A stretch of 64,000 nucleotides of DNA from Alphaproteobacteria bacterium (GCA_021774445.1 JAJFJA010000046.1:48562-112561), one strand, 5' to 3'; positions 289 to 19,816 are shown, counted from the stretch's first letter. Translations and numbers: made by a program. The notes: generated by a model from the letters alone, not told the origin.

Positions 289-1731
289 ATGTCCGAATAC
301 CTCAGACATACTTATGTCACAGTAAAGCAGAGCATTCGTCGTTTTACGACCGACCAGCGCGGTGCCGTTGCCGTTTTTCTGGCCCTCGGCATAATTCCGC
401 TAATCGGGTTTATCGGCATCGCGACGGATGCGGCGCGTGGCTACATGGTGAAGGCGAAGCTCCAACAGGCCCTGGATGCTGCCGCATTAGCCGGCGGCCG
501 AGCCATTGAGGATCCGGATCGCGACGACGATATTCGTGGTTATTTTGCCGCTAATTTTCCCGATGGTTTGCTTGGCGCAAGTGTCGCCATCCCGACCATC
601 GTGGTCGACACGGCGGAAGGCATCGTCGACGTGCAGGTCGCGGCCAACCTGCCGACCTCGTTCATGCGCGTGCTCGGCATAGACGACATCACGGTGAACG
701 CCCAGTCCGTCGTGCACCGCGCCGTTCGCGGCATGGAACTTGTCCTGATCATGGACAACACGGGCTCGATGCGTTGGGACAACAAAATGGTAACGATGAA
801 GAATGCGGCCACCGAACTCATCGATATTCTGTACGGACAAAAAGAGACGATAAAGGATTTCTACGTCGGCATTGTTCCTTACGTTTCCAATGTCAACGTC
901 GGTTTCGCCCATACCGACTGGACCAGCGACTATGACCCGGCCAATTTCGATCTCGTCGGCGCTTACAGCCCCACGCAACTGAGCTGGAAGGGCTGCGTTC
1001 TGGCACGGCCATATCCTGACGACACCAACGACAAGACCCCGGCCCAAGCCCTGTTCCAAACCTACATCTGGCAAGACGACAGCGAAAACAACTGGGATCC
1101 CGGCCCCTACGATGAATCCGATGCACAACAAGCCGCCTCGAGCAATACCGACGGACCCAATCTCTCTTGCCCCACCCCGATTCTGCCGTTGACGGCCGAG
1201 AAAAGCACCGTCCAGGCTGCAATCGACGCGATGGTCTGGTACCGCCGCTTCGGCACCATGAGTAATGTCGGCATGGTCTGGGGTTGGCGCGTCCTCTCTC
1301 CGGCTTGGCGCGGCTTGTGGGGGGGCGCCACGCCGCCCGAACTCCCGCTCGACTACAATGAGCCTCTGACCGACAAGGTCGCGATCCTACTGACCGATGG
1401 CCTGAACCAATGGAGTGGCGCCAGCAGCGATTATTATTACGCTTATGGCTACCCGGACGACGGCAACCTGGTGCCGCCTCCGGTCAATAACACCAACTCA
1501 CGCGCCGAACTCAACAGCCGGCTCGCGGAGATCTGCTCGTCGATGAAGGCCGCTGGAACGATCATTTATACAATCACCTTCCGGGTCGGCAGCAATACCG
1601 AGGTCAAAGACCTCTACAAGAATTGTGCGTCCGACCCAAGCCAATATTTTGATTCCCCGAGCAACGAACAGCTCAGCCAGACTTTCCAGGCGATCGGCGC
1701 TGAACTCAGCAATCTTCGTCTGCAGCAGTAG
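289..1731 (+). CDS. TadE/TadG-like N-terminal helix plus von Willebrand factor A (vWA) domain protein
   Basis: The N-terminus ...RGAVAVFLALGIIPLIGFIGIATDAARGY... is typical of the TadG/Flp-pilus-associated family. A MIDAS-like motif VLIMDNTGSM is followed by a vWA-like fold pattern (ILLTDG...IYTITF). Confidence 0.8.
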   Translation: MSEYLRHTYVTVKQSIRRFTTDQRGAVAVFLALGIIPLIGFIGIATDAARGYMVKAKLQQALDAAALAGGRAIEDPDRDDDIRGYFAANFPDGLLGASVAIPTIVVDTAEGIVDVQVAANLPTSFMRVLGIDDITVNAQSVVHRAVRGMELVLIMDNTGSMRWDNKMVTMKNAATELIDILYGQKETIKDFYVGIVPYVSNVNVGFAHTDWTSDYDPANFDLVGAYSPTQLSWKGCVLARPYPDDTNDKTPAQALFQTYIWQDDSENNWDPGPYDESDAQQAASSNTDGPNLSCPTPILPLTAEKSTVQAAIDAMVWYRRFGTMSNVGMVWGWRVLSPAWRGLWGGATPPELPLDYNEPLTDKVAILLTDGLNQWSGASSDYYYAYGYPDDGNLVPPPVNNTNSRAELNSRLAEICSSMKAAGTIIYTITFRVGSNTEVKDLYKNCASDPSQYFDSPSNEQLSQTFQAIGAELSNLRLQQ

Positions 1732-1744
1732 GCCCACAATACCG

Positions 1745-1780
1745 AATGGCCCGCGGCCGACCACCGCGGGCCATTCTTTA
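1745..1780 (+). terminator. Rho-independent terminator candidate after the vWA gene
   Basis: 12-bp perfect stem AATGGCCCGCGG / CCGCGGGCCATT (1745-1756 and 1764-1775) with a 7-nt loop, followed by CTTTA. Confidence 0.6.
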
Positions 1781-1868
1781 TGTGCGGGCACACCCGCCGG
1801 TCCTATTTCCTTCCTGCGGCACCACCGCTAAGTTCGGCAGCCTCGCCGTCTAACATGCGGAACGCCGG

Positions 1869-2696
1869 ATGACGCAGAACCTTCATCGCTTGCTCGAAGT
1901 CATGGCGCAGTTGCGCCACCCGGACACCGGCTGCCCGTGGGATGTCGAACAAACATTTGCGACCATTGCCCCTTATACCGTCGAGGAAGCTTACGAAGTC
2001 GCCGACGCTATCGAACGCGGCGATATGCATGCGTTGAAGAACGAGTTGGGCGACCTGCTGCTCCAGGTCGTGTTCCACGCCCGCATGGCCGAAGAGTCCG
2101 ACCTTTTCGATTTCGATGATGTCGCGGCGGCAATCTCTGAGAAAATGGTCCGACGCCATCCGCATGTATACGCGGGCGCGCCGCGCAACCCGGCCAGCCT
2201 GAAACAGAGTTGGCATGCCATCAAGGCCGAGGAACGGTCGGCCAAGGCCAGCCAGGAGCGCCGCAATCCCGGTGTCCTCGATGACGTCCCGCGCGCGCTC
2301 CCCGCCCTCGCCCGCGCCGACAAGCTGCAAGCCCGGGCCGCACGGGTCGGTTTTGATTGGCCGTCAGCGACCCAGGTTCTGGACAAAATCCGCGAAGAAA
2401 TCGCGGAAGTCGAGGAAGCGATAAGCGGCGACATGCAACGCGAACATGTCAGTGAGGAGATCGGCGATCTCTTGTTCGCCGTCGTCAATTTGGCCCGCCA
2501 CCTGAGTATCGATCCGGAGACGGCCTTGGCCACCGGCAATGCCAAATTCGTCCGCCGGTTCACCCGCATCGAAGAATTGCTGGCACAGCAGGATCGTTCG
2601 CCCGAACAGGCCGACCTCGATGAATTGGAGGCCCTGTGGCAACAGACCAAACAGGAAGAGCGTGCGCGCGAGTTAGGAATCTCTGATGCCGAGTGA
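1869..2696 (+). CDS. mazG: Nucleoside triphosphate pyrophosphohydrolase MazG
   Basis: Tandem MazG domains: ...CPWDVEQTFATIAPYTVEEAYEVADAIE... and a second EEIGDLLFAVVNLARH repeat. Length 275 aa. Confidence 0.9.
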   Translation: MTQNLHRLLEVMAQLRHPDTGCPWDVEQTFATIAPYTVEEAYEVADAIERGDMHALKNELGDLLLQVVFHARMAEESDLFDFDDVAAAISEKMVRRHPHVYAGAPRNPASLKQSWHAIKAEERSAKASQERRNPGVLDDVPRALPALARADKLQARAARVGFDWPSATQVLDKIREEIAEVEEAISGDMQREHVSEEIGDLLFAVVNLARHLSIDPETALATGNAKFVRRFTRIEELLAQQDRSPEQADLDELEALWQQTKQEERARELGISDAE

Positions 2697-3723
2697 CACC
2701 CACAATCGGAACAAGGACGCCCTGCGGCCCCTGCGCAGGGCCCTTTACGACTATGAAGCTGACGGCGTCCGAAGCGCGCTGGCGCACGCCTTCCGTAAAG
2801 ATGCGCCGGTGCGCCTCGCCTATCCGTTCGGAGATCTCGACGGTGCCGACGGCCTCTACAGCGAAGCCCTGGCGCCACTGCACAAGGCGCTACCCGACCT
2901 CGAACGCCGCGACACGATTGTCATCGCCGGCGCAACCGCAAACCATTCGAACTGGGTCGGCTGCGCCGGTTATTACACCGGAACTTTCGTGCGGTCCTGG
3001 CACGACATACCGCCGACCAATCATCAGGTCGCGCTGCGCTTCCATGAATTCTTTCGGATGGAAGAGGGTCGGATCGCTGAGATGCAGGCCCTCTGGGACA
3101 TCCCTGAGGTGATGATGCAGGCGAAGGCCTGGCCAATGGCGCCAAGCCTCGGGCGAGAATGGCACGTACCCGGCCCGGCGACCCAGGACGGCCTCGTATC
3201 TGGCCCCTACGATGCCGAACATTCGGATACCAGCGTCAGGCTTGTCTCGGAGATGCTTGCCGGCCTTGGCAATTTCGCGAGCGGTGGTGTCGAGGCGATG
3301 CGGCTCGCGGACCACTGGCATCCGAACTTCAGTTGGTACGGCCCTTCGGGCATCGGCACCGGCCGCGGCATCGCCGGTTTCCGCAACTGGCATCAAATCC
3401 CGTTTCTCAACGCTCTGCCCGACCGCGTCGGCTCGCTGGGCAAGGGCAACCTCTTCGGCGACGGCGACTATGTCGGCTTCACTGCCTGGCCGGGCATGCA
3501 CGCGACCGTCACCGGCGACGGCTGGCTGGGTATCGCGCCTGCCGGCCAGAAAATCACCATGCGCAGTCTCGACTTCTGGCGCTGCGAAAACGGCCTCATC
3601 CGAGAGAACTGGGTCTTGGTAGACCTCCTCGATGTGTTCCACCAGATCGGCGTCGATGTATTTGCCCGGCTGCGTGAGTTCAACAAGGCACGCGCGCCGT
3701 TCAGCGCGCCGCCGGCGTATTAG
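2686..3723 (+). CDS. Hypothetical protein with two NTF2/SnoaL-like (ester-cyclase-like) halves
   Basis: 345-aa ORF overlapping the mazG stop by 11 nt. Internal repeat-like halves carry SnoaL-type patterns (...FHEFFRMEEGRIAEMQALWD... and ...LDFWRCENGLIRENWVLVD...). The function is not assignable by eye. Confidence 0.5.
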   Translation: MPSDTHNRNKDALRPLRRALYDYEADGVRSALAHAFRKDAPVRLAYPFGDLDGADGLYSEALAPLHKALPDLERRDTIVIAGATANHSNWVGCAGYYTGTFVRSWHDIPPTNHQVALRFHEFFRMEEGRIAEMQALWDIPEVMMQAKAWPMAPSLGREWHVPGPATQDGLVSGPYDAEHSDTSVRLVSEMLAGLGNFASGGVEAMRLADHWHPNFSWYGPSGIGTGRGIAGFRNWHQIPFLNALPDRVGSLGKGNLFGDGDYVGFTAWPGMHATVTGDGWLGIAPAGQKITMRSLDFWRCENGLIRENWVLVDLLDVFHQIGVDVFARLREFNKARAPFSAPPAY

Positions 3724-4598
3724 TCGTTCGCCAACAACTGCATCAGGCTTGACGTGTCCCAACGATTGCCGCCTCGCGCTTGCACATGCGAGTAGAACTG
3801 GTCGACCAGCGCCGCCACCGGCAACCGTGCGCCAGTTCGTTGCGCCTCGTCCAGACAGATGGCCAGATCCTTGCGCATCCAATCGACCGCGAATCCGTGC
3901 TCGAACGCACCGGCGAGCATGGTTTCCCACCGATTTTCCATCTGCCAGGATTGTGCCGCGCCTTTTGAGATAACCTCCACCACCTTGGGCATGTCGAGGC
4001 CTGCCTTGACGCCGAAGTTCAGCGCTTCCGAGAGACCTTGTACCAACCCGGCGATGCAGATCTGGTTGACCATTTTGGCCAGTTGCCCCGACCCAGCCGG
4101 CCCCAGCAGGACGCAAGCCCGTGCGTAGGCATCGATCACCGGCTGCGCCGTCTCGAATGTCTCCTGTGCACCGCCAACCATCACCGTAAGAACACCGTTC
4201 TCCGCCCCGGCTTGGCCGCCCGACACCGGGGCATCCAAGAACCCGATGCCGCACTCGCCGGCGGCGTCCGCCAACTCTCTCGCCAGGCCGGCCGATGCGG
4301 TCGTGTGATCCACCAAGACCGCACCGGACTTCATCCCGGCCAGCGCGCCGTCGTCGCCATACATCACACTGCGCACATCGTCGTCATTGCCCACGCACGC
4401 AAATACGACGTCCGCCCCCGCGGCCGCCTCTCGCGGTGTCTGAGCACTCTTCCCCTTATGCTGCGACAGCCATTTCTCGGCCTTGCCGGGGCTCCGGTTA
4501 TAGACGGTGACCGAATGTCCCGCGGCCGCCAAATGCCCGGCCATGGGATAGCCCATGACGCCAAGTCCCAGAAACGCCGTGTTGCGCCCGTTGCTCAT
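3720..4598 (-). CDS. NAD(P)-dependent beta-hydroxyacid dehydrogenase family (3-hydroxyisobutyrate dehydrogenase-like)
   Basis: N-terminal Rossmann motif FLGLGVMGYPMAGHL and family motifs ...DAPVSGG...GTLTVMVGG... Length 292 aa. Confidence 0.8.
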   Translation of the reverse strand: MSNGRNTAFLGLGVMGYPMAGHLAAAGHSVTVYNRSPGKAEKWLSQHKGKSAQTPREAAAGADVVFACVGNDDDVRSVMYGDDGALAGMKSGAVLVDHTTASAGLARELADAAGECGIGFLDAPVSGGQAGAENGVLTVMVGGAQETFETAQPVIDAYARACVLLGPAGSGQLAKMVNQICIAGLVQGLSEALNFGVKAGLDMPKVVEVISKGAAQSWQMENRWETMLAGAFEHGFAVDWMRKDLAICLDEAQRTGARLPVAALVDQFYSHVQARGGNRWDTSSLMQLLAND

Positions 4599-7483: not shown

Positions 7484-8860
7484 TTAGAAAAACTCGAGGC
7501 TGACCGAGAACATCTTCTCGACTCGTTTCACCGCGCCCTTGGTGGCGAAAAGTACCACCAAATCACCCACCCCGATGACCGTCCCGCCGCGTGCCATCTC
7601 GATGCCATCCTTTCGCACCACCGCCGCAATGACGATGCCCGACGGCAGCTTCGCCTCACGCAGCGGCAACCCGACGACACTGGACGTCTCGAGCGCTTCG
7701 ACCTCCATGATCTCGCCGAAATTGTCGGCGATCGAGTGGACGGAGCGAATCCGCCCGCGGCGTATGTATTGCAGGATAGTCGACACCGTAATCGCCCGCG
7801 GACTCACCACCACATCGATGCCGAGCGGCGCCATCAAGGGGCCGTAGGTTCCCGAATTCACCAATGTGATCACCCGCCCCGCGCCATAACGCTTGGCCAG
7901 GAGCGACGACAGGATGTTGACTTCGTCGTCATTGGTAACCGCGATCACCGTCTCGGCCCGCGACACGTTCGCTTCTTCGAGAATCTCCGGATCCAGGGCA
8001 TCTCCGTTGAGGATTACGGTCTTCGGGCAAGCTTGGGCGACGAACTCGGCCCGTTCGCGGTCCAACTCGATCAATCTCGTGCTAACGCCCGGAAAGTTAT
8101 CGGCCAGGTCCTCCGCCAGACAAAGCCCGATGTTGCCGCCACCGATGACCACGACCCGGCGCGCCTCGGGTTCTTCGTGGCCGAATGCCACCATTGTACG
8201 CGGCACATGATCGCTATCGACGACGAGATAGACCTCATCGCCTTCGAACAACTCGTCATCGCCTGACGCCACGATGGGTGAGGTGTTTCGTATAATGCCG
8301 ACAGTGTTGATGTTCAAATCCGGAAACAGCGACGTAAGCTGACGCAGTGGCGTGTTCAGGATTGGACAATCCGGCTCGCAACGAATCCCCAACAGCTTAA
8401 GTTTGTTATCGGCCAGCGGAATCATGTCGACGGTACCGGGTACGGTCAGCCGACGACCGATCGCCCGCGCGACTTCGATCTCCGGCGAGATGATCACGTC
8501 GATCGGCATATGGTCGCGGCTGAACAGATCCGACCAAATCGGCTCGAGATAGTCCCGCGCCCGCAGCCGTGCGACCTTCGTCGGCACATCGAACAATGAG
8601 TGCGCGATCTGGCAAGCCACCATGTTCACTTCGTCGGCGAAGGTCACGGCAACGATCATGTCGCAGTCCCGCGCGCCGGCAGCCTCCAGCACACTGGGAT
8701 GGGCGGCATGACCGACCATGCCGCGCACGTCGAGCGAATCGCCGATCTTTTGGATCAGATCCGGCCGCTGGTCGATAACGGTAATATCGATACCTTCGCT
8801 CGCCAGCTCCCGCGCAATATTCGAGCCGACCTGCCCCGCACCGCAAATAATAGCTTTCAT
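7484..8860 (-). CDS. trkA: Trk potassium uptake system protein TrkA
   Basis: 458 aa. Two Rossmann units (MKAIICGAGQVGSNIA and VVVIGGGNIGLCLA), each followed by an RCK_C-like segment. Confidence 0.9.
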   Translation of the reverse strand: MKAIICGAGQVGSNIARELASEGIDITVIDQRPDLIQKIGDSLDVRGMVGHAAHPSVLEAAGARDCDMIVAVTFADEVNMVACQIAHSLFDVPTKVARLRARDYLEPIWSDLFSRDHMPIDVIISPEIEVARAIGRRLTVPGTVDMIPLADNKLKLLGIRCEPDCPILNTPLRQLTSLFPDLNINTVGIIRNTSPIVASGDDELFEGDEVYLVVDSDHVPRTMVAFGHEEPEARRVVVIGGGNIGLCLAEDLADNFPGVSTRLIELDRERAEFVAQACPKTVILNGDALDPEILEEANVSRAETVIAVTNDDEVNILSSLLAKRYGAGRVITLVNSGTYGPLMAPLGIDVVVSPRAITVSTILQYIRRGRIRSVHSIADNFGEIMEVEALETSSVVGLPLREAKLPSGIVIAAVVRKDGIEMARGGTVIGVGDLVVLFATKGAVKRVEKMFSVSLEFF

Positions 8861-8866
8861 GGGCTG

Positions 8867-10291
8867 CTATTCACTTCGATTGGCCTCAGTCGCACCGCTT
8901 CCGCCGCCGCCATGCACGCCAAGCGACTTCAGCTTACGGTGCAAGGCTGACCGCTCCATCCCCACGAACGCTGCGGTGCGTGAGATATTACCGCCGAAGC
9001 GCGTAACCTGCGCGCCCAGATATTGCCGTTCGAATTCCTCGCGCGCATCGCGTAACGGCAAACTCAGCATCTCCATGCTATTTTCCAGCCGCAGAATCGG
9101 CGGTGCGATTGAACCAATCTCCGGCGGCAACATATCGGCTCGTATCGGCTCCGTAGAGTCTCCTGGCGCCATGATAAGCAACCAATCCACGACATTGCGC
9201 AACTGCCGCACATTTCCCGGCCAACCATACGCCTGCAGCGCCGCCATCGTATCCGGGCCGAACGGCCGCCGCGGCAGCCCCGCCATTTCCGAAGAACGCG
9301 CCATGAAATATTCGGCCAGCAACGGTATATCCTCGCGCCGCCGCCCCAGGGATGGAACCTCGATCGGCACCACGTTCAATCGATAGAACAAATCCTCGCG
9401 AAACCGCCCCTCGGCGATCGCGGATTGTAGGTCATGGGTCGTCGACGCGATGACCCGAACATCCACCCTGACCCGGTGATTGCCGCCGAGCCGCTCAAAA
9501 GTCTGATCCTGCAGGACGCGGACGATCTTGCCTTGAGTTTCCAGCGGCATGTCCACAACTTCGTCGAGAAACAAGGTCCCGCCGTGCGCCTGCTCGAACA
9601 AACCGACCCGTCCCGGCGGCTCGTTCCCCACGCCGCCGGACCCTTCGCTACCGAACAGCTCCAGCTCCATGCGATCCGGCGCCATGGTGGCGCAGCTCAC
9701 CACCACGAAAGGGCCATCCTTACGGCCGGAACGTTGATGCAACAGCCTGGCCACGACTTCCTTGCCCGACCCGGCCGGTCCGGTGATCAGTACCCGGCTT
9801 CCCGTCGGCGCAACTTTCTCGATCGCCTGTGAAATCTGGCTCATTGGCGCGGACTCGCCGACCAGCTTGGCCTCATCGACGACGCGCAATCGCAGTTCTC
9901 TTATTTCCCGCCGTAGCCGCGCCGCTTCGATGGCCCGCTGTATGATTAGCAGCAGCCGGTCGGACTTGAACGGCTTTTCGATGAAATCATAGGCTCCGGC
10001 CTTGATTGCCTGCACCGCCATCTCGATGCTGCCATGGCCGCTGATCATCACCACCGGCACGTCGGCATGTTCACGCCGCAGGATGTCGAGGATCTCCAGA
10101 CCGTCGCGTTTGCTGCCTTCCAGCCAAATATCGAGAATGACCAGGCTCGGCCGTCGCGCCGAAATCTCGGCCAGGGCCATGACATCGTTGCCCGCCTCAC
10201 GCGGCTGATAGCCCTCATCCTCGAGCAGGCCCGCAATCAGCGCTCGGATATCATCTTCATCATCGACAATGAGAATGTCCTGCGGCATCAA
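8867..10291 (-). CDS. ntrX: Sigma54-type response regulator NtrX
   Basis: Receiver domain (ILIVDDEDDIR...LDIWL), AAA+ sigma54-interaction domain (ITGPAGSGKEVVAR, GTLFLDEV) and a C-terminal HTH. Located downstream of ntrY. Confidence 0.85.
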   Translation of the reverse strand: MMPQDILIVDDEDDIRALIAGLLEDEGYQPREAGNDVMALAEISARRPSLVILDIWLEGSKRDGLEILDILRREHADVPVVMISGHGSIEMAVQAIKAGAYDFIEKPFKSDRLLLIIQRAIEAARLRREIRELRLRVVDEAKLVGESAPMSQISQAIEKVAPTGSRVLITGPAGSGKEVVARLLHQRSGRKDGPFVVVSCATMAPDRMELELFGSEGSGGVGNEPPGRVGLFEQAHGGTLFLDEVVDMPLETQGKIVRVLQDQTFERLGGNHRVRVDVRVIASTTHDLQSAIAEGRFREDLFYRLNVVPIEVPSLGRRREDIPLLAEYFMARSSEMAGLPRRPFGPDTMAALQAYGWPGNVRQLRNVVDWLLIMAPGDSTEPIRADMLPPEIGSIAPPILRLENSMEMLSLPLRDAREEFERQYLGAQVTRFGGNISRTAAFVGMERSALHRKLKSLGVHGGGGSGATEANRSE

Positions 10292-10445: not shown

Positions 10446-12770
10446 TCAGTCGGATTCTGTCTCGACCTCGGTTGCGGTTTTCTCGATATCGACGTCCGGC
10501 GCTGTCGGAAAAACCAAGGTCGCCCGCGCGCCTGCGGGCTCGTTCCCCTCTAGGATGAGTTCGCCATGGTGGTCTTCCATGATCTTCTTGACGATGGCCA
10601 GGCCAAGGCCGGTTCCCCGTTTACGCGTCGTAACATAGGGTTCGGTCAGTTGATCCCGGGCCAAATCCGGCAAACCCTTGCCGTTATCCGCAATCACGAC
10701 CCGAACGCCCCCGTCATCCTCCAGCAACCGCAAGCTGATCTGACCGGGCGGTAGCGTGGCGTCCGGTGCCGCCTCCCGACCATCGGTCGCGTCGACCGCA
10801 TTCTGCAGCAAGTTAGTCAGGGCCTGGCTGATCAATCGTCTGTCGCACCGACAGGAAACCGCTGCCGCGGGAACGTCGATATCGAAATTGATCTCTTGAT
10901 GCGCATTTCGTTGCAGGAAGACCGCTTCCCGGCAGATCGACCGCAGATCCTCTTCCCGCATGACCGGGGTTGGCATGCGCGCAAAGGATGAGAACTCATC
11001 GACCATCCGCCCAATATCGCCGACCTGACGGACGATGGTATCGGTGCACTGTTCGAAGGCCGATCTGTCCGACACGATCTCTTGCAGATATTTTTTCTTT
11101 AGCCGCTCGGCCGACAATTGAATTGGCGTCAATGGGTTCTTGATTTCATGCGCGATCCGCCGCGCAACATCGGCCCAAGCCGCCTTTCTCTGCGCCGACA
11201 TAAGCTCGGTCACATCGTCGAACGTAATGATGTAGCCGACAATTGACCCGTCACCGCCCCGCTCCGAGGCAATGCGAACCAGTAAAGTGCGTGTCCGCCC
11301 GTTCGGCGTAATCGTGATCTGATCTTCGACCAGCTTGTTCGGCCACAGACGCACCCGGCTGAGTAGCTCGGCCATCTCCGGCACCACTTCGTCAAGCAGC
11401 CGCCCACGCAGCAGTTCGAAGTCCAAGCCCAACAGCGCCGTAGCACTCCGATTAGGCAGAGTGACGCGACCGGCGCCATCGACGCCGATCACCCCCGCCG
11501 AAACGCCGGACAGAACCGTCTCCGTAAACCGTCGCCGCTTATCAAGCTGGCGGTTTGCCTCGACCAGTTCCCGGCGCTGTTCGGAAAGCTGGTGCGTCAT
11601 GCGGTTAAAGGCCCGTGTCAGGGTAGCGAATTCGTCCTCGCGATCATGTTCGGCGACCCGAACGCTCAGATCACCGGCACGCACTCTCTCGGCCGCGCGC
11701 ACCAGACGCGATATCGGACGGGCCAGCCGGTTGGCAAAATTCAGCCCCACGCCGACCGCTGCCAGCAGCAGCAGCAAGGAGACCAAGACGAAGATCGAGG
11801 TCAGCGTCAGCTGCAAACCCGCCCGCCGTAACTCCAGCCGCTGATACTCGACGGCCGCCGCCTGAGTACGTTCCATGTGACCCAACACATTTGGATCGAC
11901 GAACCGGCCCACATAAAGGAAGGCGGTTGGTACGGTCTGCAGGGAGACCAGGGCCCGCACCCGATCGTCACTATCGCTCGTCAGAATGACGACTTCGCCC
12001 TTGGACGCCTCCTCCATCGCCCACACCGGCGGGCGGGCCAACTCCAACGCGAAACTCAGCCCGGTACGCCCTATTACCCTACCGCTCGAATCGAATACGA
12101 TGCCCTCGGAAAGAGCCCGCAGGGCCGCCTGAGTTTCGACGATCCGATTGGCGACAGCTGGACGCGAGATCAGCGCCGGCCATTGCCGGTTCAAGTCGTT
12201 GGCCATCGCCAGAGCATCCGCCGCGATAACCTGCTTATGCTCCTGCAGATAGGCCTCGGCGACCGCCACCGAACCGTTGACAGCGGTCCGCACTCGGTCG
12301 TTGAACCAAGTTCTGACTTCGAAATTGAAGAACACCGACGACATCGTGGCGACGATGATCGCCGGCGCCACCGCCACCACCGCGAAGACCGTGACCAGCC
12401 GGACATGCAGCCGCGAACCCGCCGCCCCGGCCCGCCGCATGCCCCAGAGCCGCACTAAGCCGAATGTCACCACACCACCCAGCGACAGCAGCAGCGTCAG
12501 ATCCAGGACCAGCAACGCGAGGATCAGATCCTGGGTCAGTGTGAAGCCGAGATTTCCGGTCAGGGCCAAAAAAGTCAGAATACCGGCCGCGACGGCCGCG
12601 AACATCAAAGCAATGGCCGCTTTCCGCCCGAGTCCGGCCCGCCGCAGCCGTCGCCAGGCGATGCCGGAATAGCGCTGCCAACGACCCCCGACGTCGGTCG
12701 TCGCTCTTAGTGACTGTGATGTCGTCTCAACCAAGCAAATGCGTCCACTAGCTATTCTCGATTGTACCAA
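10446..12770 (-). CDS. ntrY: Sensor histidine kinase NtrY
   Basis: N-terminal TM helices, HAMP, PAS, H-box (ARRIAHEIKNPLTPIQLSAERL) and an ATPase domain (GTGLGLAIVKKIMEDHHG). The exact start is uncertain. Confidence 0.85.
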   Translation of the reverse strand: MVQSRIASGRICLVETTSQSLRATTDVGGRWQRYSGIAWRRLRRAGLGRKAAIALMFAAVAAGILTFLALTGNLGFTLTQDLILALLVLDLTLLLSLGGVVTFGLVRLWGMRRAGAAGSRLHVRLVTVFAVVAVAPAIIVATMSSVFFNFEVRTWFNDRVRTAVNGSVAVAEAYLQEHKQVIAADALAMANDLNRQWPALISRPAVANRIVETQAALRALSEGIVFDSSGRVIGRTGLSFALELARPPVWAMEEASKGEVVILTSDSDDRVRALVSLQTVPTAFLYVGRFVDPNVLGHMERTQAAAVEYQRLELRRAGLQLTLTSIFVLVSLLLLLAAVGVGLNFANRLARPISRLVRAAERVRAGDLSVRVAEHDREDEFATLTRAFNRMTHQLSEQRRELVEANRQLDKRRRFTETVLSGVSAGVIGVDGAGRVTLPNRSATALLGLDFELLRGRLLDEVVPEMAELLSRVRLWPNKLVEDQITITPNGRTRTLLVRIASERGGDGSIVGYIITFDDVTELMSAQRKAAWADVARRIAHEIKNPLTPIQLSAERLKKKYLQEIVSDRSAFEQCTDTIVRQVGDIGRMVDEFSSFARMPTPVMREEDLRSICREAVFLQRNAHQEINFDIDVPAAAVSCRCDRRLISQALTNLLQNAVDATDGREAAPDATLPPGQISLRLLEDDGGVRVVIADNGKGLPDLARDQLTEPYVTTRKRGTGLGLAIVKKIMEDHHGELILEGNEPAGARATLVFPTAPDVDIEKTATEVETESD

Positions 12771-12790
12771 TCAGCGACGCCCCGGTCTGT

Positions 12791-14230
12791 CTACCGTAGG
12801 CCCCGCAAAACCTCGATGTCCAACATCCGAATCTTCTTACGCAAGGTATTGCGATTCAGCCCCAGCAAGGCCGCCGCGCGGATCTGATTGCCTCGCGTAG
12901 CCGCCAAGGCAAGGCTGATAAGCGGCCTTTCAACCTCCCGGATCACGCGCTCATAGAGACCTGCCGCCGGCAGCCCGCCGCCATGCGCCGCGAAATATTC
13001 TTTCAAGTGCCGCTCCACGGCATCGCCGAGCGACTCCGCGTCGTTGCCCGGTTCGGCCTCGGCTTCGGCATAACCGCTTAACTCGGCCTCGATGGTGGCT
13101 TGGGAGATCACCGGTTGACTGTATAGTGCCGCCAGGCGACGAACCAAATTCTCCAATTCCCGGACATTGCCCGGCCATCGATGCTGCTGCAGCCGCTCCA
13201 TGGCGCCGCTGTCCAACGACTTGCCTGACAGCCCGTCTTCCTGCACTTGCCGCAGGAAATGCTGTACCAGCGCCGGAATATCGGCCGTCCGCTCGCGCAG
13301 CGGCGGCACCCGTACCGGCACCACCGCCAAGCGATAGTAAAGATCGTCACGAAACAGGCCTTGGCGCACGGCCTGCCGCAAATCGCGATGCGTTGCGGCC
13401 ACGATCCTGACATTGGCCGGGATCGGATTACGGCCGCCGACCGTGGTAAACTCGCCTTCTTGCAACACGCGCAACAAGCGGGTTTGTGCCTCCATCGGCA
13501 TATCGCCGATTTCGTCGAGAAAAAGCGTCCCGCCGTCGGCCTGCTCGAACCGTCCACCGTGGCGGCTGGTGGCGCCGGTGAACGCACCCTTCTCGTGACC
13601 GAACAGCTCGCTCTCGATCAACTCCCGCGGGATCGCCGCCATGTTGATAGCGACGAATGGCCCCAAGCGTCGCTTGCCATAGTCGTGCATCGCGCGCGCG
13701 ATGAGTTCCTTCCCGGTGCCGGATTCCCCCGTGATCAGGACCGTCAAATCGGTTCCCATCACCCGCGCCATCACGCGATAGACGTCCTGCATCGCCGGTG
13801 AACGGCCGATCAGCGGCAAGCCGTCCTCGCCGGCCGGCAGCCCGCTCTCTTCGTAGCTCGCTTCCGGCCGCGTCAACGCCCGGTCGATCGAGTCCACCAG
13901 ATCGTTCAGATCGAATGGTTTCGGCAGATACTCGAACGCCCCGCGCTCGGCGGCCTTCACCGCCGTCAGCAGCGTGTTCTGCGCGCTCATCACGATGACC
14001 GGCAACTCCGGCCGCAATTTTCTGATCCGCGGCACCAACTCGAGACCGTTCTCATCCGGCATGACCACATCCGTCACCACCAGGTCGCCATGACCGTCGG
14101 CAACCCACCGCCACAGTGTTGAAGCGGTACCGGTCGTCCGCACATCGTGCCCGCGTTCGCTCAACGCCTTGGTCAAGACCGTCCGGATGCCGCTGTCGTC
14201 GTCGGCGACCAGGATTGTCGCGCCGCTCAT
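12791..14230 (-). CDS. ntrC: Nitrogen regulation response regulator NtrC
   Basis: Receiver domain ([11 protein letters not shown]), sigma54 AAA+ domain ([23 protein letters not shown]) and a Fis-type HTH ([21 protein letters not shown]). Confidence 0.9.
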
Positions 14231-15351
14231 GATACCTCCGGCGGTTCTGTATAGGCTGGCAGCATGACATTGAACCTCGTACGACGCGGCCGGCTGGTAA
14301 CGTCGACGATCCCGCCATGATTGCTGACGATCCGCGCCACCAGCGCCAGACCGAGGCCGGTGCCCTTGGCTTTCGTGGTCACGAACGGCTCGAACAGCTG
14401 CCGCCGCACGTCGTCCGATATGCCGGGGCCATTGTCGCCGATACTGACGACCAGCGGCAGGCCGAGACGCCGGTCGCCGCCCGGCGCCAACACATGCAGG
14501 CCGTGCTCGTAACGCGTGCCCAAGCTGACCTCTCCACCCTTATCTTTGACCGCCTCGGCGGCATTCTTCACCAAGTTGAGGAACACTTGTACGAGTTGGT
14601 CATGGTCCCCGGCGACCGCCGGCAGCGACGGATCGTAATGTTCGGCAAACCGCACATGCCGCGCGAAACCGGACTCCGCCAGCCGGCGCACATGATCCAG
14701 AACCTCGTGAATATTGACCGCTGCCGGCGACAAGTTGGGCGGGCCGGAAAACACCTCCATCCGGTTGACCATCGCCACGATCCGGTCTGTCTCGCGACAG
14801 ATCAAATCCGTCAGTTCCCGATCGTCACGGCTCACCCGCTGGCCCAGCAACTGCGCTGAGCCGCGAATGCCGGACAGCGGGTTCTTGACCTCATGGGCCA
14901 GCATCGCCGCCATCGCCGAGACCGAGCGCGCCGCGCTGCGGTGTGCCAGTTGCCGGTCGATCCGCCGCGCCAATGACCGCTCATGCAGCGTGATCACCAC
15001 GCAGCCATCCTCGTCCACCACCGGGTCCGCATTGACCGCAACCAGGTTGGGCCCGAATTTCTTGCCTTCCAGCACCACCTCGGACTCGGCCACGCTGGCC
15101 CCCGTCCGTCGCGCCTGCTCCAAAGCATAAAACACCGGGTTATCGGCCGGAATGAAGTCCGCCAGCTGCCGGCCCTCGAGCCCGGCGGCACTCACCGCCA
15201 ACAGGCTTTCCGCCGCCTGATTAGCGAACTTGATGTCGTTCCCGGCACCCACGGCGAGGACCGCGTGACTGATGGTATTCAGCATCGCCAAGCTGCTCGG
15301 CCGGTCGCCCGCCGAACAACCGGCGACAGTGGCGGCTTCACCCGCCTTCAT
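14227..15351 (-). CDS. ntrB: Nitrogen regulation sensor kinase NtrB
   Basis: PAS domain, H-box ([20 protein letters not shown]) and ATPase domain ([13 protein letters not shown]). I trimmed the start to the ATG forming an ATGA overlap with the dusB stop. There is also an ATGA overlap with the ntrC start. Confidence 0.85.
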
Positions 15352-16328
15352 GCCGCCTGCCCCAGCGGCATCCCGAAACACCGCACCACCGCTTCCATAA
15401 CTCGGCTTGGATCCATCGTGTTATTCACCACTTGCCGAAACTCGGCCGAGTTCGGCAATCCGGCCGAATACCAACCCAAATGCTTGCGCGCGATACGGAT
15501 ACCGCTATTCGCGCCGTAATAGTGCAGCATGTCCTCGAAATGCTCGGCCATCACCGCCCGCCGGTCCGCCGTCGCCGGCGCCGCCAGGCGCTGTCCGGTC
15601 GCCAGAAAATGCGCCACTTGCGCGGCAAACCAGGGGCGCCCCTGGGTCGCCCGCCCAACCATCACGCCGTCGGCGCCGGAAACCGCCAGACAACGCACGG
15701 CTGCGGCCTCATCGCGGATGTCGCCATTGGCGATGACCGGAATCCCCACCGCTTCCTTTACCGCGCGAATGGCCGCCCAATCCGCCTCACCCCGGTAGAA
15801 CTGGCAGCGCGTCCGACCATGCACCGTGACCATCTGCACGCCGCACTCTTCCGCCATGCGGGCCAACCGCGCCGCGTTTCGGTCGTCATCGTCCCACCCC
15901 AGACGCATCTTCACGGTCACGGGAACGCTCACCGCAGACACCGTTGCCGCCATGATCTGTCCTGCCAGCGCTTCGTCGCGCATCAAGGCCGAGCCGGACT
16001 GCTTGCCCACGACTTTTTTCGCCGGGCAACCGAAATTGATGTCGATGATCGAGGCCCCGAGGTCTTCGTTCAGCTTCGCCGCCTCGGCCATCACCGCCGG
16101 CTCCACCCCGGCCAACTGCACCGCCACCGGCGCCTCGTCCGCCGCCGTCCGTGCCCGCCGCAACGATTGCCGGGTTTGCCGCACCATATGCCGGCTCGCC
16201 ACCATCTCCGAGACCACCAGACCAACCCCGAACCGCCGCACCAATCGGCGAAACGGCAGGTCCGTCACCCCGGACATCGGCGCCAGGATGACCGGACAGG
16301 AAAGCCCGATATCACCAATCTTGACCAT
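15348..16328 (-). CDS. dusB: tRNA-dihydrouridine synthase B (NifR3 family)
   Basis: ...PVILAPMSGVTDLPFRRL...IDINFGCPAKKV...VTVHGRTR... I trimmed the start to MVKIGDIG, because the longer ORF adds an atypical N-terminus. First gene of the dusB-ntrBC operon. Confidence 0.85.
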   Translation of the reverse strand: MVKIGDIGLSCPVILAPMSGVTDLPFRRLVRRFGVGLVVSEMVASRHMVRQTRQSLRRARTAADEAPVAVQLAGVEPAVMAEAAKLNEDLGASIIDINFGCPAKKVVGKQSGSALMRDEALAGQIMAATVSAVSVPVTVKMRLGWDDDDRNAARLARMAEECGVQMVTVHGRTRCQFYRGEADWAAIRAVKEAVGIPVIANGDIRDEAAAVRCLAVSGADGVMVGRATQGRPWFAAQVAHFLATGQRLAAPATADRRAVMAEHFEDMLHYYGANSGIRIARKHLGWYSAGLPNSAEFRQVVNNTMDPSRVMEAVVRCFGMPLGQAA

Positions 16329-16584
16329 ATTTTGGTCAGCCCCAAAACCGTGACTAAGAATTAGGCAGAATACGGGATAACCCCGAACCCCGCAAACCCA
16401 ATCCAGGCCCGCGCCGGCCTTGTCGCCGCGTGACACCGCCCGGCAATTCCACTATCGACGTAGTCTCAAATAGTATTACTTAAGATTGTCAGACTACTGC
16501 TCTAAAGTGTTGTATGACAACTACGAAAGAACTATTTTGTTACCCAACACCCCTACGGGTTTGCCAGTATTCAGGAGGAAACGC

Positions 16585-16878
16585 ATGGCCCGCCCAACCC
16601 TCGGCACCGGTGCATCCCGGTCAAAGCTCACGGATGTGGTCGGCAACGGCCGCACCAATAACGTCCCCGACGTCTTGTGGCTCAAGAACGCCCTGCACGC
16701 CCTCGGCCGCTACAACGACCCCTTGGGCGAACGCCATGGCTTTATCGACCAGAAGCTCGACGACGCCATCACCAACTACCAGCGCGACAGCGGCCTCAAG
16801 AGCGACGGCTTTCTAAAACCCATGGGTGAGACCGAAAAGACCATCCGCGTCGAACTCATCCGTCTCGGCGAGGAGTGA
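16585..16878 (+). CDS. Small peptidoglycan-binding-domain (PG_binding_1-like) protein, first gene of the toxin-like cassette
   Basis: An AGGAGG sequence lies 5 nt upstream of the ATG at 16585. The pattern VLWLKNALHALGRY...LDDAITNYQRDSGLKSDGFLKPMGET fits the PG_binding_1 helical repeat. No signal peptide is evident. Confidence 0.65.
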   Translation: MARPTLGTGASRSKLTDVVGNGRTNNVPDVLWLKNALHALGRYNDPLGERHGFIDQKLDDAITNYQRDSGLKSDGFLKPMGETEKTIRVELIRLGEE

Positions 16879-16881
16879 GGC

Positions 16882-17596
16882 ATGAGCATCGCAACATCTG
16901 AAGGCCTACGTCGACTGGCGCAACTCCCGATTGTCGCCCGAACCTTTTTCGGCTCCGCCGAAAGGGCCTTCCGCGCCCTCGGGCTCGAGGATGCGGCGGC
17001 TAATTTGCGCCATTACCGCGGCGCCACAGGCAAGGAAAAGACCTTTTCCGACGAACAAATCGCCCGCCACCTCCCGATCATTGAGGCCGAGGACGAAAAT
17101 CGAACCCGTTTCGCAACAAAGACATTCGTCGGCCGAACAAAAAAACCGACCAAAGGTCAACAACCGCCTCCGCGGCCTCCAGGATGGTCAAACGTACTCG
17201 TTCGACGACCATTTCAATCGCGGATTCGAATATCGCGGCGCCATTGTGAGCAAGCCTGCCGCAAGCCTGTCATCGGGCCTCGGCCTACCGACCTACAAGG
17301 CGTTCGGCAACGGTGAAGTCATCTCGGTCGCCGACCTTACCGCGACCCGTATTGGCAAATTCCTTAACATAGCCGGCACGGTCCACCACGGCTTTGATAC
17401 GGATCGAGGGGACAACCTGTACAACTTCGATCCTGAACAGCCCGGTCACCTGGCCGGCAGAGCGCTCGAGCGCGAGGGCGAAGCAAAACCTTTTCGCATG
17501 CAGTTCGACCGCAAACAATCGGTCGACGCCGTGCTTGAATACGGGCCCGACCGAACGCTCACCCTCAGGAAAATCGACTGGGGCAAGATCGAGTGA
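16882..17596 (+). pseudogene. Toxin-like protein of unknown family, split by a 1-nt frameshift in an A7 run (about 237 aa if repaired)
   Basis: ORF 16882-17316 and ORF 16931-17596 are colinear halves. Removing one A from the run at 17139-17145 joins ...KTFVGRTK to NRPKVNNRLRGLQDGQTYSFDD... Its last 73 aa are paralogous to the C-terminus of ORF 18145-18519. Confidence 0.6.
17139..17145 (+). repeat. A7 homopolymer at the frameshift point of the toxin-like gene
   Basis: Read directly from the sequence: ggccgaac-aaaaaaa-ccgacc. The upstream frame has phase 1 and the downstream frame has phase 2. Confidence 0.9.
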
Positions 17597-18117
17597 CTAA
17601 GGCCGCAAAGAGGCGCCTTCGCGCCCTCGCCTACGTCGTCTCGGGCGGCGCAGCGCTGTTCCTCTTCCTCGCGACGGTTCCGGTGGTCCCGTATCATCCC
17701 GTGTGCGGCGGTTACTACGAGAACCGGACTGTCCTCAAAGGTCCCCTCCGCCCCATATACCAAACGTGGCTAGAGAAGATCATGACGGAAAGCGGTTTCA
17801 ATTACTGGAAACTCGGCGACCAGATTTTCATTCGTTACATCAACATCTTCGATGGACCTGACATCCTCGATCGAGAAGATCTCCACGACAACATCGAGTG
17901 GGGATTGATCTTAAGCATGGCGCAAGGATACACCGCGACACAAAGCGATATGCCGCCGCCACCGCCCTTGCTGGATGCTATCCGCGCCACGGACCACATC
18001 TATGGCCCGTTTGATCCCGACAGCTCAACGGGTTCATTCCGCCGTTTCGAAGATTGCGAGGTCAAACGCGCCGGCACCATCTGGGTCGAGAAGCTTGACG
18101 CCGCAGGTCAACCATAA
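17593..18117 (+). CDS. Membrane-anchored immunity-like protein 1 (unknown family)
   Basis: Its GTG start overlaps the upstream stop (GTGA). It has a basic N-terminus and one TM helix (LAYVVSGGAALFLFLATVPVV), followed by a domain of about 140 aa with two Cys and a PPPPP motif. Paralog of ORF 18516-19007. Confidence 0.65.
   Translation: MTKAAKRRLRALAYVVSGGAALFLFLATVPVVPYHPVCGGYYENRTVLKGPLRPIYQTWLEKIMTESGFNYWKLGDQIFIRYINIFDGPDILDREDLHDNIEWGLILSMAQGYTATQSDMPPPPPLLDAIRATDHIYGPFDPDSSTGSFRRFEDCEVKRAGTIWVEKLDAAGQP
17683..17835 (+). repeat. 153-bp direct repeat, copy 1 (inside immunity-like gene 1)
   Basis: Aligns without gaps to 18145-18297 at a constant offset of 462 bp, with 7 mismatches by hand alignment. 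Confidence 0.9.
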
Positions 18118-18144
18118 TGGCACGCCCGTGGCGCCATCCCCGCC

Positions 18145-18297
18145 GTGGTCCCGTATCATCCCGTGTGCGGCAGCGACTACGAGAACCGGACTGTCCTCAA
18201 AGGTCCCCTCCGCCCCATATACCAAACGTGGCTCGAAAAGGTCATGACGGAAAGCGGTTTCAATTACTGGAAACTCGGCGATCAGATTTTCATTCGT
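18145..18297 (+). repeat. 153-bp direct repeat, copy 2 (5' part of the chimeric orphan ORF)
   Basis: See copy 1. It encodes VVPYHPVCGSDYENRTVLKGPLRPIYQTWLEKVMTESGFNYWKLGDQIFIR, i.e. residues 31-81 of immunity-like protein 1. Confidence 0.9.
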
Positions 18298-18519
18298 GGC
18301 CGCGTAAGGCATGGCTTCGATGAAGATCTGGATGACAACGTCTTTGATTTCAATCCTGGGCAGATTGGACGCAACCATGCTCGTGTTTTGGAAGCCGCTG
18401 GTGAGGCCAAGGCGTTTGGGATGCAGTTCGATCGGCAGCAGTCCGTTGACGCTGAGGTGATCCGCGATAGGAACGGAAGACTTACCCTCAAGCGAGTTAC
18501 ATGGGGTGACATCGAGTGA
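18145..18519 (+). CDS. Chimeric orphan ORF: immunity-gene fragment fused to a second toxin C-terminal module
   Basis: The first 51 codons duplicate part of the immunity-like gene. The last 73 codons (18298-18516) align without gaps to the last 73 aa of the toxin-like gene, with 38/73 identical by hand. I see no Shine-Dalgarno sequence before the GTG at 18145, so independent translation is doubtful. Confidence 0.45.
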   Translation: MVPYHPVCGSDYENRTVLKGPLRPIYQTWLEKVMTESGFNYWKLGDQIFIRGRVRHGFDEDLDDNVFDFNPGQIGRNHARVLEAAGEAKAFGMQFDRQQSVDAEVIRDRNGRLTLKRVTWGDIE

Positions 18520-19007
18520 CCCGAGGAAAAACGGCGGCGTTTGGGCTGGGGTTGTGCGTTCTTGTGGGCTTCATGCTCTTCACCGTCGTGCCCCTCACAC
18601 GATACCGGCCCAACTGCGGCAGCATTGAAACCCCAATCTACCTCGATGGTCCGCTTCGGCCGGATTACCGCGACAACCTCGAACACGTTTTGAACGAAGA
18701 GGGGTTCTACTACTGGAAGCTGAACGGGAACATCTACCTGAAGACAATGGACGTCGTCACTGGTCTTGATTTTTATCACGAGCTGTTCCGCAACGCGGAA
18801 GCGGATATTATCTCGAACTTATCCCACGGCTACAGGGCAAACGGTGAACGAATTCCACCACCACCGCCCTTACTGGACGCCATTCGCCGGACCGAGGCCG
18901 AATACGGTCCTTTTCCCGCGGCCATAGTCGGCTCCGATTCGCGTCACTTTCGTGACTGCGACGTCATGCGCGCCGGCGCCATCTGGGTCGAGAAGCTGGA
19001 CGGTTAG
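18516..19007 (+). CDS. Membrane-anchored immunity-like protein 2 (diverged paralog of 17593-18117)
   Basis: It has the same GTGA stop/start overlap with the preceding toxin-CT module and a TM helix (FGLGLCVLVGFMLFTVVPL). Shared motifs are GPLRPxY, GFxYWKL, PPPPPLLDAIRxT, YGPF and FxDCxVxRAGxIWVEKLD. Confidence 0.65.
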   Translation: MTRGKTAAFGLGLCVLVGFMLFTVVPLTRYRPNCGSIETPIYLDGPLRPDYRDNLEHVLNEEGFYYWKLNGNIYLKTMDVVTGLDFYHELFRNAEADIISNLSHGYRANGERIPPPPPLLDAIRRTEAEYGPFPAAIVGSDSRHFRDCDVMRAGAIWVEKLDG

Positions 19008-19816
19008 GCGCCACCGCCCGCGACCAGCACGTCGGTGACGAATTTCACCCCCGGAAAGCCCAGGGTCAGCAGCAGATAGGCCAGCAACGCCAAGCGCGCC
19101 ACCCGTCGGCCCGCCAGGCCGCTGCGCAAATGCGCCACGATCAGCACGGCGATGACCACAAAGGCTGCAAAAGAGAACAGCACCTTATGATCGAGTACGA
19201 GCACCGATCCAGTGGTGAAGAACTGCGTCGCCATTCCGGTGATCAGACCCAGGCCAAGCACCGCTTCGCCACCCTGCAACAGGTTGAGCTGCAGCCGTTC
19301 TGCATCGCTAATCGACGGTAGAATTCTGACGATCTCCGACCGGCTCTTCATCCGCACCGCCCGCTCCCGCAGCAGCACGGCCAGCCCCGCCACCGCGGCC
19401 AGGGTCACCAGGGCGTAAGTCACCACCGCCGCGACGATATGCACGACCAGCCAGGCGTCGGGCGCCGCCGCCACCAGCGCACCGGCCGGGTCCGAACTCC
19501 AAATCGTGGCGACCAGCCCCAACACCAACAGATAGGGCACCAGCAGTGCCCCCAATCGCCAGCAATCCCGCAACGTCAGCGCCAACACGGCAAACAGCGT
19601 CATCGTTGCGGCGATGATGATCCATAAGGTTACCGCAAACCCGGTCCGCCACACCCCGGAGGTCAGGGCATAGACGAAGATCAACGGCCCGCCGACTCCG
19701 ATCGCCAAGACAATCCAGAACACGCCGTTGCGATGGTCCGGCCAGCGCAACGGCAAGACCGCGGCTGGTACCAGCGACACCAGGGCAGATATGCTGAGCA
19801 TTAGGCTACCGCTCAT
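19004..19816 (-). CDS. Cytochrome c assembly family membrane protein (CcsA/YpjD-like)
   Basis: 270 aa polytopic membrane protein resembling the YpjD/CcsA-like family. Its stop codon overlaps the stop of the convergent ORF 18516-19007. Confidence 0.55.
   Translation of the reverse strand: MSGSLMLSISALVSLVPAAVLPLRWPDHRNGVFWIVLAIGVGGPLIFVYALTSGVWRTGFAVTLWIIIAATMTLFAVLALTLRDCWRLGALLVPYLLVLGLVATIWSSDPAGALVAAAPDAWLVVHIVAAVVTYALVTLAAVAGLAVLLRERAVRMKSRSEIVRILPSISDAERLQLNLLQGGEAVLGLGLITGMATQFFTTGSVLVLDHKVLFSFAAFVVIAVLIVAHLRSGLAGRRVARLALLAYLLLTLGFPGVKFVTDVLVAGGGA

Follow-up and report, generated by a model that had tools for sequence, protein, structure and literature searches.

An alphaproteobacterial A-B-C gene cassette as a probable effector–immunity system of the cell envelope

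Results

A five-gene locus that probably encodes an effector–immunity cassette

We analysed a 64,000-nucleotide (nt) stretch of DNA from an Alphaproteobacteria bacterium (GCA_021774445.1 JAJFJA010000046.1:48562-112561; hereafter the window, with positions counted from its first letter), which carries five same-strand open reading frames (ORFs), A to E, between 16585 and 19007. Our data suggest that this locus is probably an effector–immunity cassette acting on the cell envelope. A and B would together represent the split form of a two-part protein, with A as the N-terminal module for trafficking, an adaptor role or cell-wall targeting, and B as a C-terminal toxin domain of ~210 amino acids (aa) that lacks an export signal of its own. 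C would be the cognate immunity protein; its translation would be coupled to that of B, and an inner-membrane anchor would hold its disulfide-bonded domain in the periplasm. From the evidence below we infer that B would be toxic, that C would confer immunity, that the site of action would be periplasmic, and that delivery would use a contractile injection system, either a type VI secretion system (T6SS) or an extracellular contractile injection system (eCIS). The initial annotation of this DNA had placed the same five ORFs, all of which we recovered at the same coordinates; the features of the locus are as follows.

16585-16878, + strand: gene A, a 97-aa stand-alone PG_binding_1-like protein
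16882-17596, + strand: gene B, a putative toxin/effector domain protein with a +1 frameshift, 237 aa once repaired
17139-17145, + strand: A7 homopolymer at which the frame of B breaks, with one A extra relative to loci L001 and L003 (site alignment)
17593-18117, + strand: gene C, a 174-aa immunity-like protein whose GTG start overlaps the TGA stop of B
17683-17835, + strand: direct repeat copy 1, within C (codons 31-81; 153 nt; repeat search)
18145-18297, + strand: direct repeat copy 2, the 5′ part of D, a copied C fragment without the transmembrane (TM) helix
18298-18519, + strand: 3′ part of D, the final ~73 codons of a diverged B-like gene (corresponding to B residues 165-237)
18516-19007, + strand: gene E, a 163-aa intact paralogue of C and an extra, orphan immunity-like gene

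The identical GTGA overlap joins B to C and D to E, with GGGG upstream at both junctions, as had been described.

The first three genes form a conserved cassette, A-B-C, that recurs in Rhodospirillales/Acetobacterales-type genomes. When hidden Markov models (HMMs) of A, B and C were mapped over the fetched loci, an A orthologue lay upstream of B in every related locus, a C-like gene overlapped or abutted B downstream in every alphaproteobacterial locus (a match of position only), and both the order A-B-C and its close spacing were kept in all triad loci (L001-L016). In L001 and L003 the cassette sits between dusB and a CcsA-like gene, as in the window, with PF01578 found at the same position in L001 and the PF01207 (Dus) synteny shared by L001-L003. 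More distantly related triads lie in entirely different neighbourhoods (e.g. ilvD/rplM or glnA); their carriers are Azospirillum (L004, L010), Rubritepida (L008), Paracraurococcus (L009), Siccirubricoccus (L006) and contigs from metagenomes (L007, L011-L016). In all, the cassette is found in at least five genomic contexts that are unrelated to each other, and its distribution, with matches in 7 GTDB species, is patchy.

The B domain is a large family found alone or at the C-termini of longer proteins

As the initial annotation stated, B has no Cys, no signal peptide and no recognisable domain; it also lacks a hydrophobic segment (maximum KD19 1.04). B, C, D and E had no match in Pfam, NCBIfam, PADLOC or PHROGs, and the B profile found no relative among PDB sequences (best a cupin, E-value 1.8). 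Word-indexed searches returned only a handful of relatives, and the broader family came from HMMER: an exhaustive search with the B profile matched 539 cluster representatives at E ≤ 1e-3, 277 of them at E ≤ 1e-10. These clusters (50% identity) come from Alphaproteobacteria, Actinomycetota and low-GC lineages.

Architectures were counted over the best 150 of the 539 matches. Near-full members numbered 103, of which 66 are stand-alone (~230 aa) and 37 have an N-terminal extension; in 24 of these 37 the extension holds one or two PG_binding_1-like domains and then a long linker of low complexity. In every case the B domain forms the C-terminal part of the protein. One member, P0010 (345 aa), is a direct fusion of A and B of the Rosetta-stone kind, with a C-like gene downstream in L015. 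In L018 and L019, a TM-anchored gene with the C-family signature PxxP[YF]xPxC follows a long-form B; its relation to C is supported by an hmmsearch E-value of 1.7e-4 (L018) and an hhalign probability of 94%, the latter over 21 columns only.

In three independent cases (P0146; L021, E-value 2e-31; L023, E-value 7e-30) the B domain stands behind an eCIS_core/DUF4157 domain. DUF4157 is an N-terminal marker of eCIS toxins, which carry the toxin domain at the C-terminus (PMC8213781), and it has served as a trafficking-domain anchor in polymorphic toxin discovery (bioRxiv 10.1101/2021.10.19.465003). L021, a high-GC metagenomic contig, appears as a compact toxin array: positions 1-4354 encode three consecutive eCIS_core/DUF4157 proteins, whose C-termini are an unknown domain, the B domain and a YkuD L,D-transpeptidase, so the DUF4157-B gene lies between two other DUF4157 proteins. 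In L023, positions 8630-9271 encode a 213-aa multi-pass membrane protein with a sub-threshold match to Lgt (PF01790; E-value 2e-4), which may be another kind of immunity partner for the B domain.

The AlphaFold2 (AF2) model of B has a mean pLDDT of 69 and a pTM of 0.61, with a helical N-terminal part and a β-sheet core above 90 pLDDT. A Foldseek search of this model against PDB and BFVD gave nothing at E ≤ 0.001 (best E-value 0.29); entries for pore-forming toxins, at E-values of ~1, were judged to be noise. The invariant polar residues of the family are a Glu and an Asn (AExxN helix), an Arg (AxRxG), and a His and an Asp (VxHxxxDxYDF). These residues could form an active site, to which no activity could be assigned. 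A LAS/M15 metallopeptidase (HxxxD) was considered for B and dropped, as there is one conserved His only and no HxH.

A and C point to a possible envelope target

The description of A as a PG_binding_1-like protein is borne out by Pfam, where residues 28-75 match PF01471 at an E-value of 2.7e-7 and 31.1 bits, above the gathering cut-off of 23. A has no signal peptide. Besides the separate gene, the PG_binding_1-like domain also occurs as an N-terminal fusion to B, in P0010, P0019, P0035 and others. In vgrG loci, PG_binding_1 has been reported as a gene of its own and also in fusion with the N-termini of toxins, in that study only in γ-proteobacteria (PMC10673891); a PG-binding domain has further been described in 68 predicted eCIS toxins (PMC11297309). 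The split (A plus B) and fused forms found here mirror the behaviour reported for the vgrG loci.

C has the basic N-terminus and single TM helix (residues ~11-31) attributed to it earlier, and its domain carries two invariant Cys (38 and 155) and a PPPPP motif. Likewise, E has a basic N-terminus, the conserved pair of Cys and one TM segment (residues 7-25). E is indeed a diverged paralogue of C (47.6% identical over 143 aa), and the C-family HMM matches C at an E-value of 6e-68 and the E gene at 6.7e-60. The C profile had no relative in PDB (best TIP20, E-value ~1). C is membrane-anchored, and its Cys-pair domain probably faces the periplasm.

A signal-less, Cys-less B next to a partner that has an N-in anchor and a Cys pair is the layout expected of immunity to an effector acting on the periplasmic side, as for the cell-wall effectors of T6SSs or for colicin M and its immunity protein Cmi. 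If C is a periplasm-facing cognate immunity protein, B would act on the envelope, i.e. the periplasm, the peptidoglycan or lipid-linked precursors, and the attached or accompanying PG-binding module also points in this direction. The envelope or periplasmic target proposed by the initial annotation is plausible, a placement that we infer from the TM-anchored Cys-pair proteins C and E together with PG_binding_1.

C-like genes are repeatedly multiplied: E in the window, two copies each in L007 and L016, and the second cassette in L002/L003. The tandem in L007 (1864-3087) consists of two 194-aa C-type copies that are ~90% identical, and that in L016 (8854-9840) of one frameshifted and one intact copy.

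The same features could belong to an endogenous envelope module, in which A and B are a peptidoglycan-associated enzyme or structural factor, C is a membrane regulator or docking partner, and no weapon is involved. Autolysins and enzymes of the cell wall commonly carry PG_binding_1 (Pfam PF01471), the synteny beside housekeeping genes is kept in L001-L003, and no secretion-system genes lie nearby. We nevertheless consider this explanation unlikely, as A and B, lacking signal peptides, could not reach the wall via Sec or Tat, the cassette is rare and patchily distributed, has a lower GC content and is duplicated, associated with insertion sequences (ISs) and often broken, and in DUF4157 proteins the B domain stands in the position of the toxin.

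PG_binding_1 combined with a catalytic domain and no signal peptide is also the architecture of some Gram-negative phage endolysins, and Rz-type i-spanins are type-II anchored periplasmic proteins with Cys, as is C. A lysis cassette derived from a phage or gene transfer agent, with A and B as a signal-less modular endolysin and C as an i-spanin/holin-like protein, would accommodate these likenesses as well as a weak PHROG endolysin match of A (phrog_1493, E-value 0.008). B and C, however, had no significant PHROG match (best E-value 0.035 for B, none for C). A tblastn search of 50,697 phage genomes gave no match, nor did two scans of viral contigs in IMG/VR yield a relative, and phage genes flank none of the loci examined. 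We rejected a phage origin on the PHROGs, phage genome and IMG/VR searches, and a lysis cassette is very improbable.

The window copy of B is probably inactivated

B is spread over two frames (ORF pieces 16882-17316 and 16931-17596). The 1-nt frameshift and the repaired length of about 237 aa given by the initial annotation are both correct: dropping one A of the A7 tract yields a product of 237 aa, which can be aligned over its full length with intact homologues and is 52-59% identical to P0001-P0003. Judging from the reading frame, the window copy of the putative toxin gene is probably inactivated. According to the scheme proposed here, B would have been switched off by the +1 frameshift in A7 and immunity (C and E) kept without an active toxin, a state that would hold unless A7 is a sequencing error or the tract slips back.

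That the frameshift is a homopolymer sequencing or assembly error and A-B-C is fully active is a substantial possibility, albeit not the one we favour; it competes only with the part of the scheme in which the toxin is off and the immunity kept. The break falls exactly in the longest A/T homopolymer of the window (the sole A/T run of 7 or more in the 64 kb) and is repaired by a single base, and the gene frameshifted in L008 has an intact twin, P0007, in another assembly. Against an error, the other window genes that we inspected are intact, including those with G7, C7 and C8 runs, and B is disrupted independently elsewhere. Of these disruptions, the IS in L006 and the frameshift in the isolate genome of L009 are harder to dismiss as technical. 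A programmed frameshift at A7 was rejected, since the homopolymer is missing from L001 and L003 and the other loci are disrupted at different positions.

Disruptions of B at differing sites are found in the window, in the second copy of L002/L003, in L006 (by the IS), in L008 and in L009. The insertion in L006 (6695-7936) is a 413-aa transposase-like ORF within the B homologue of Siccirubricoccus sp. G192, near the position of the window frameshift, and the C homologue downstream of this broken B is also frameshifted. In L002, a close relative of the window locus like L003, IS elements (rve, DDE_Tnp_1 and Mu-type transposase; 2441-3759 and 10587-13335) flank the duplicated cassette, one of them sitting between ntrC and ntrY. 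In summary, A-B-C behaves as an accessory, mobile and decay-prone module, not as a housekeeping one.

D is a chimera probably left by rearrangement of a second cassette

The last 73 aa of B and D had been aligned without gaps at 38/73 identities, and we obtained exactly this count (125/219 nt). Overlooked in that comparison was the 5′ part of D: its first 51 codons directly repeat codons 31-81 of C, with 146/153 nt and 47/50 aa identical, and match positions 29-77 of the C HMM at an E-value of 2.7e-19. This direct repeat identifies D as an in-frame chimera of a C fragment and a B fragment. The 3′ part of D starts mid-strand relative to the AF2 model of B (strand 160-171). As this start lies inside a predicted β-strand, the 73-aa module shared by D and B is a fragment of a domain. 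D has no Shine-Dalgarno sequence and retains the GGGG/GTGA coupling signal to E. Thus, D is not simply the displaced orphan C-terminal module that the initial annotation saw in it; it is better described as a truncated remnant that covers only B residues 165-237, begins mid-strand and is fused to a C duplicate. To judge from the repeat and the predicted strand, D would be a recombination scar.

L002 and L003 carry a second, tandem cassette made of an A′ and a frameshifted B′; in L002 the C′ is cut by an IS, and in L003 the contig ends within B′. An ancestral pair of tandem cassettes, as still present in these two loci, would be the simplest account of the window. A rearrangement would have removed A′ and ~164 codons of B′, leaving a recent, 95%-identical partial duplicate of C at the junction and so producing D, and E would be an intact spare immunity gene left from the destroyed second cassette. 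The D C-terminus and E are about as distant from B and C as from the L001 and L003 cassettes (45-56% and 44-48%), so either the two units are paralogues of long standing or one of them was acquired from elsewhere.

Polymorphic toxin loci in the strict sense would require a different arrangement, with the last ~73 aa of B as a self-sufficient, swappable toxin and D-E as a functional displaced orphan pair. The identity of the two C-termini and the GTGA/GGGG coupling to a C-type gene at both junctions fit such an arrangement, as do short database fragments that hold only the C-terminal part of the family (P0044, P0077, P0086, P0093 and P0145). Many of the short fragments are demonstrably pieces of frameshifted genes, e.g. 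P0045 and P0057 from L008 and L009, and P0105 and P0068 out of frame. The conserved unit is the whole ~210-aa domain (profile positions ~33-246, in one stretch), not a 73-aa C-terminal toxin module on a tiny carrier as the initial annotation held, and the C-terminus is no more variable than the N-terminus. Compared with P0001-P0003, B is 55-65% identical in its N region, 39-55% in the middle and 52-58% in its C region; its thirds are about equally conserved, so there is no boundary between a conserved N- and a variable C-terminal part. With D beginning inside a predicted β-sheet strand, fused to a C duplicate and devoid of a Shine-Dalgarno sequence, we regard the strict version as highly unlikely.

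Of the polymorphic-toxin architecture seen by the initial annotation, the general class fits our data, i.e. a putative toxin with a downstream immunity-like gene and an orphan-like second unit; the sharply variable C-terminus that is typical of polymorphic toxins was not observed. No trafficking domain of polymorphic toxins is present on the window B, where A is separate, and relatives carry PG_binding_1 or DUF4157. The co-variation expected between the B C-terminus and C was weak over 12 pairs (Pearson 0.45, Spearman 0.30), no more than shared ancestry would produce, and does not discriminate.

Discussion

Comparison with known toxin systems

Among the known systems, eCIS/DUF4157 toxins (PF13699; Geller et al. 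2021, PMC8213781; Danov et al. 2024, PMC11297309) share with our family the C-terminal B domain behind DUF4157 in P0146, L021 and L023, the arrays in which DUF4157 precedes other C-terminal domains (e.g. YkuD), and the reported PG-binding domains. Unlike them, the window B is a short domain standing alone, without DUF4157 and without eCIS genes in its vicinity, and a separate PG_binding_1 gene precedes it. PF13699 is absent from A-E, so the window locus is without the eCIS-toxin marker, in contrast to P0146, L021 and L023. Many eCIS toxins also lack a dedicated membrane-anchored partner, which the window B has in C.

T6SS periplasmic effector–immunity pairs resemble the locus in the signal-less effector, the PG_binding_1 domain that is separate or fused, the periplasm-exposed immunity-like protein, the bicistronic coupling and the orphan extra immunity genes. 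PG_binding_1 in vgrG loci was reported only from γ-proteobacteria (PMC10673891), whereas our loci are α-proteobacterial. The locus further differs from T6SS pairs in that C is TM-anchored and not a lipoprotein or signal-peptide protein, and in the absence of vgrG, hcp, PAAR or an adaptor in the window or beside related loci. Specifically, vgrG/hcp/PAAR, adaptors (DUF4123, DUF1795, DUF2169) and MIX/FIX/RIX/WHIX markers were found neither in the window nor in the flanks of L001-L016, and B and its long relatives had no Pfam match to T6SS markers.

Colicin M degrades lipid II, and its immunity protein Cmi is a TM-anchored, disulfide-bonded periplasmic protein. C is similar to Cmi in its N-terminal membrane anchor and its periplasmic domain with a conserved Cys pair, and B, like colicin M, would act from the periplasmic side. 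The D-x-[YF]-[DN]-F motif of B resembles that of colicin M only superficially, as there is no HR and the DxYDx5HR signature is thus absent. B shows neither sequence nor fold similarity to colicin M, the locus has no colicin translocation or receptor domains, and no ColM-type entry is among the top 50 Foldseek matches listed for B. A colicin M-like activity, prompted by the DxYD-like motif, was dropped for want of sequence or fold support.

CdiA-CT/CdiI and Rhs-CT arrays likewise have a truncated 3′ toxin fragment with its own immunity-type gene right after a complete pair, with the coupling kept. In contrast to them, the present locus lacks a large conserved carrier as well as a demarcation of the VENN/PxxxxDPxGL type; the orphan D belongs to the same toxin family and is an incomplete domain, and its junction is a duplicated fragment of an immunity gene rather than a carrier-homology stub. 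PT6, a DUF4157-fused, periplasm-toxic protein of 85 aa from Moraxella canis (WP_078255899.1), could be compared by size only; it differs from B in size, and no 85-aa match was among the best 150 of the 539 family matches.

Taken together, we would classify the locus as a toxin-domain/immunity family that is new and uncurated and belongs to the known effector–immunity (polymorphic-toxin-like) class.

Strength of the effector–immunity assignment

Several observations weigh against this assignment. No T6SS, eCIS or type IV secretion system gene was found in the 64-kb window or beside any A-B-C locus examined. The fusions of DUF4157 and B are three cases amid hundreds of family members, in distant lineages; the DUF4157-B gene of L021 has no adjacent immunity gene, and that of L023 is followed by the Lgt-like membrane protein and not by a C homologue. 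The dusB-ccsA synteny of L001-L003 reflects vertical inheritance within one clade. As the window frameshift lies in a homopolymer, some of the disruptions are possibly assembly errors, and the intact twin P0007 likewise implies that part of the recurrent inactivation may be technical. The fold and active site of B are without assignment, its AF2 confidence is only moderate and its Foldseek and PDB searches gave no match; the AF2 model of C, built from three sequences, has a pLDDT of 40.

We still favour the effector–immunity cassette. Tentatively, and with clearly less confidence than in the class itself, we can go further: B may be a widespread toxin domain new to the curated libraries searched (at least 539 clusters), with a fold that has no solved relative, acting on the periplasmic side and neutralised by a new family of TM-anchored, disulfide-bonded immunity proteins; A may be its dedicated trafficking or adaptor partner in Alphaproteobacteria, with a delivery route that is not encoded adjacently. 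If this is true, a sizeable toxin domain family and an immunity family, both outside the searched curated libraries, would join the interbacterial weapons. The toxin would have no structural precedent and a probable envelope target, and such activities have repeatedly exposed new antibacterial targets. Our reading would also support the idea that PG_binding_1 can act like the MIX-type markers, stand-alone or fused, and would extend it beyond γ-proteobacterial vgrG loci. The significance for the window genome itself is modest, with a toxin gene that is probably off and a locus that mainly records duplication, rearrangement and decay.

Flanking genes and further observations

The cassette is bounded by the following genes.

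15348-16436 (dusB), - strand: left flank, divergent dusB (nifR3), followed by ntrBC-ntrYX
19004-19816, - strand: right flank, a convergent CcsA-like cytochrome c assembly gene

A Shine-Dalgarno sequence, AGGAGG, lies 6 nt upstream of the ATG of A. At the other end, the 3′ ends of E and of the convergent CcsA-like gene overlap at the stop codons by 4 nt (19004-19007), and no terminator-like hairpin was found between the two. The GC content of the cassette is 54-60% (window 16250-19000) versus 64-68% in the flanks (dusB/ntrB and ccsA), a dip that is consistent with foreign origin. As called mechanically, the dusB ORF is 362 aa long, ~36 codons longer than the called orthologues (326 aa, L001-L003). 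Its real start is probably the internal Met of MVKIGDIGL...; the divergent intergenic region that precedes A would then be wider. The sole secretion- or pilus-related gene seen in the window encodes a TadG-like protein of Flp pilus assembly (Tad and VWA domains; 289-1728).

A further B-like ORF, stand-alone and unannotated, occurs in the actinomycete locus L017 (Nonomuraea gerenzanensis NZ_LT559118.1, 7721825-7722187), with ~31% identity over the segment matched to P0035; the record is an 11.85-Mb replicon labelled 'plasmid'. On one side of this ORF lies a very large ORF in which WD40-like repeats and a P-loop motif were seen by eye, and on the other side another large ORF, which has a P-loop motif and stretches of hydrophobic residues towards its C-terminus.

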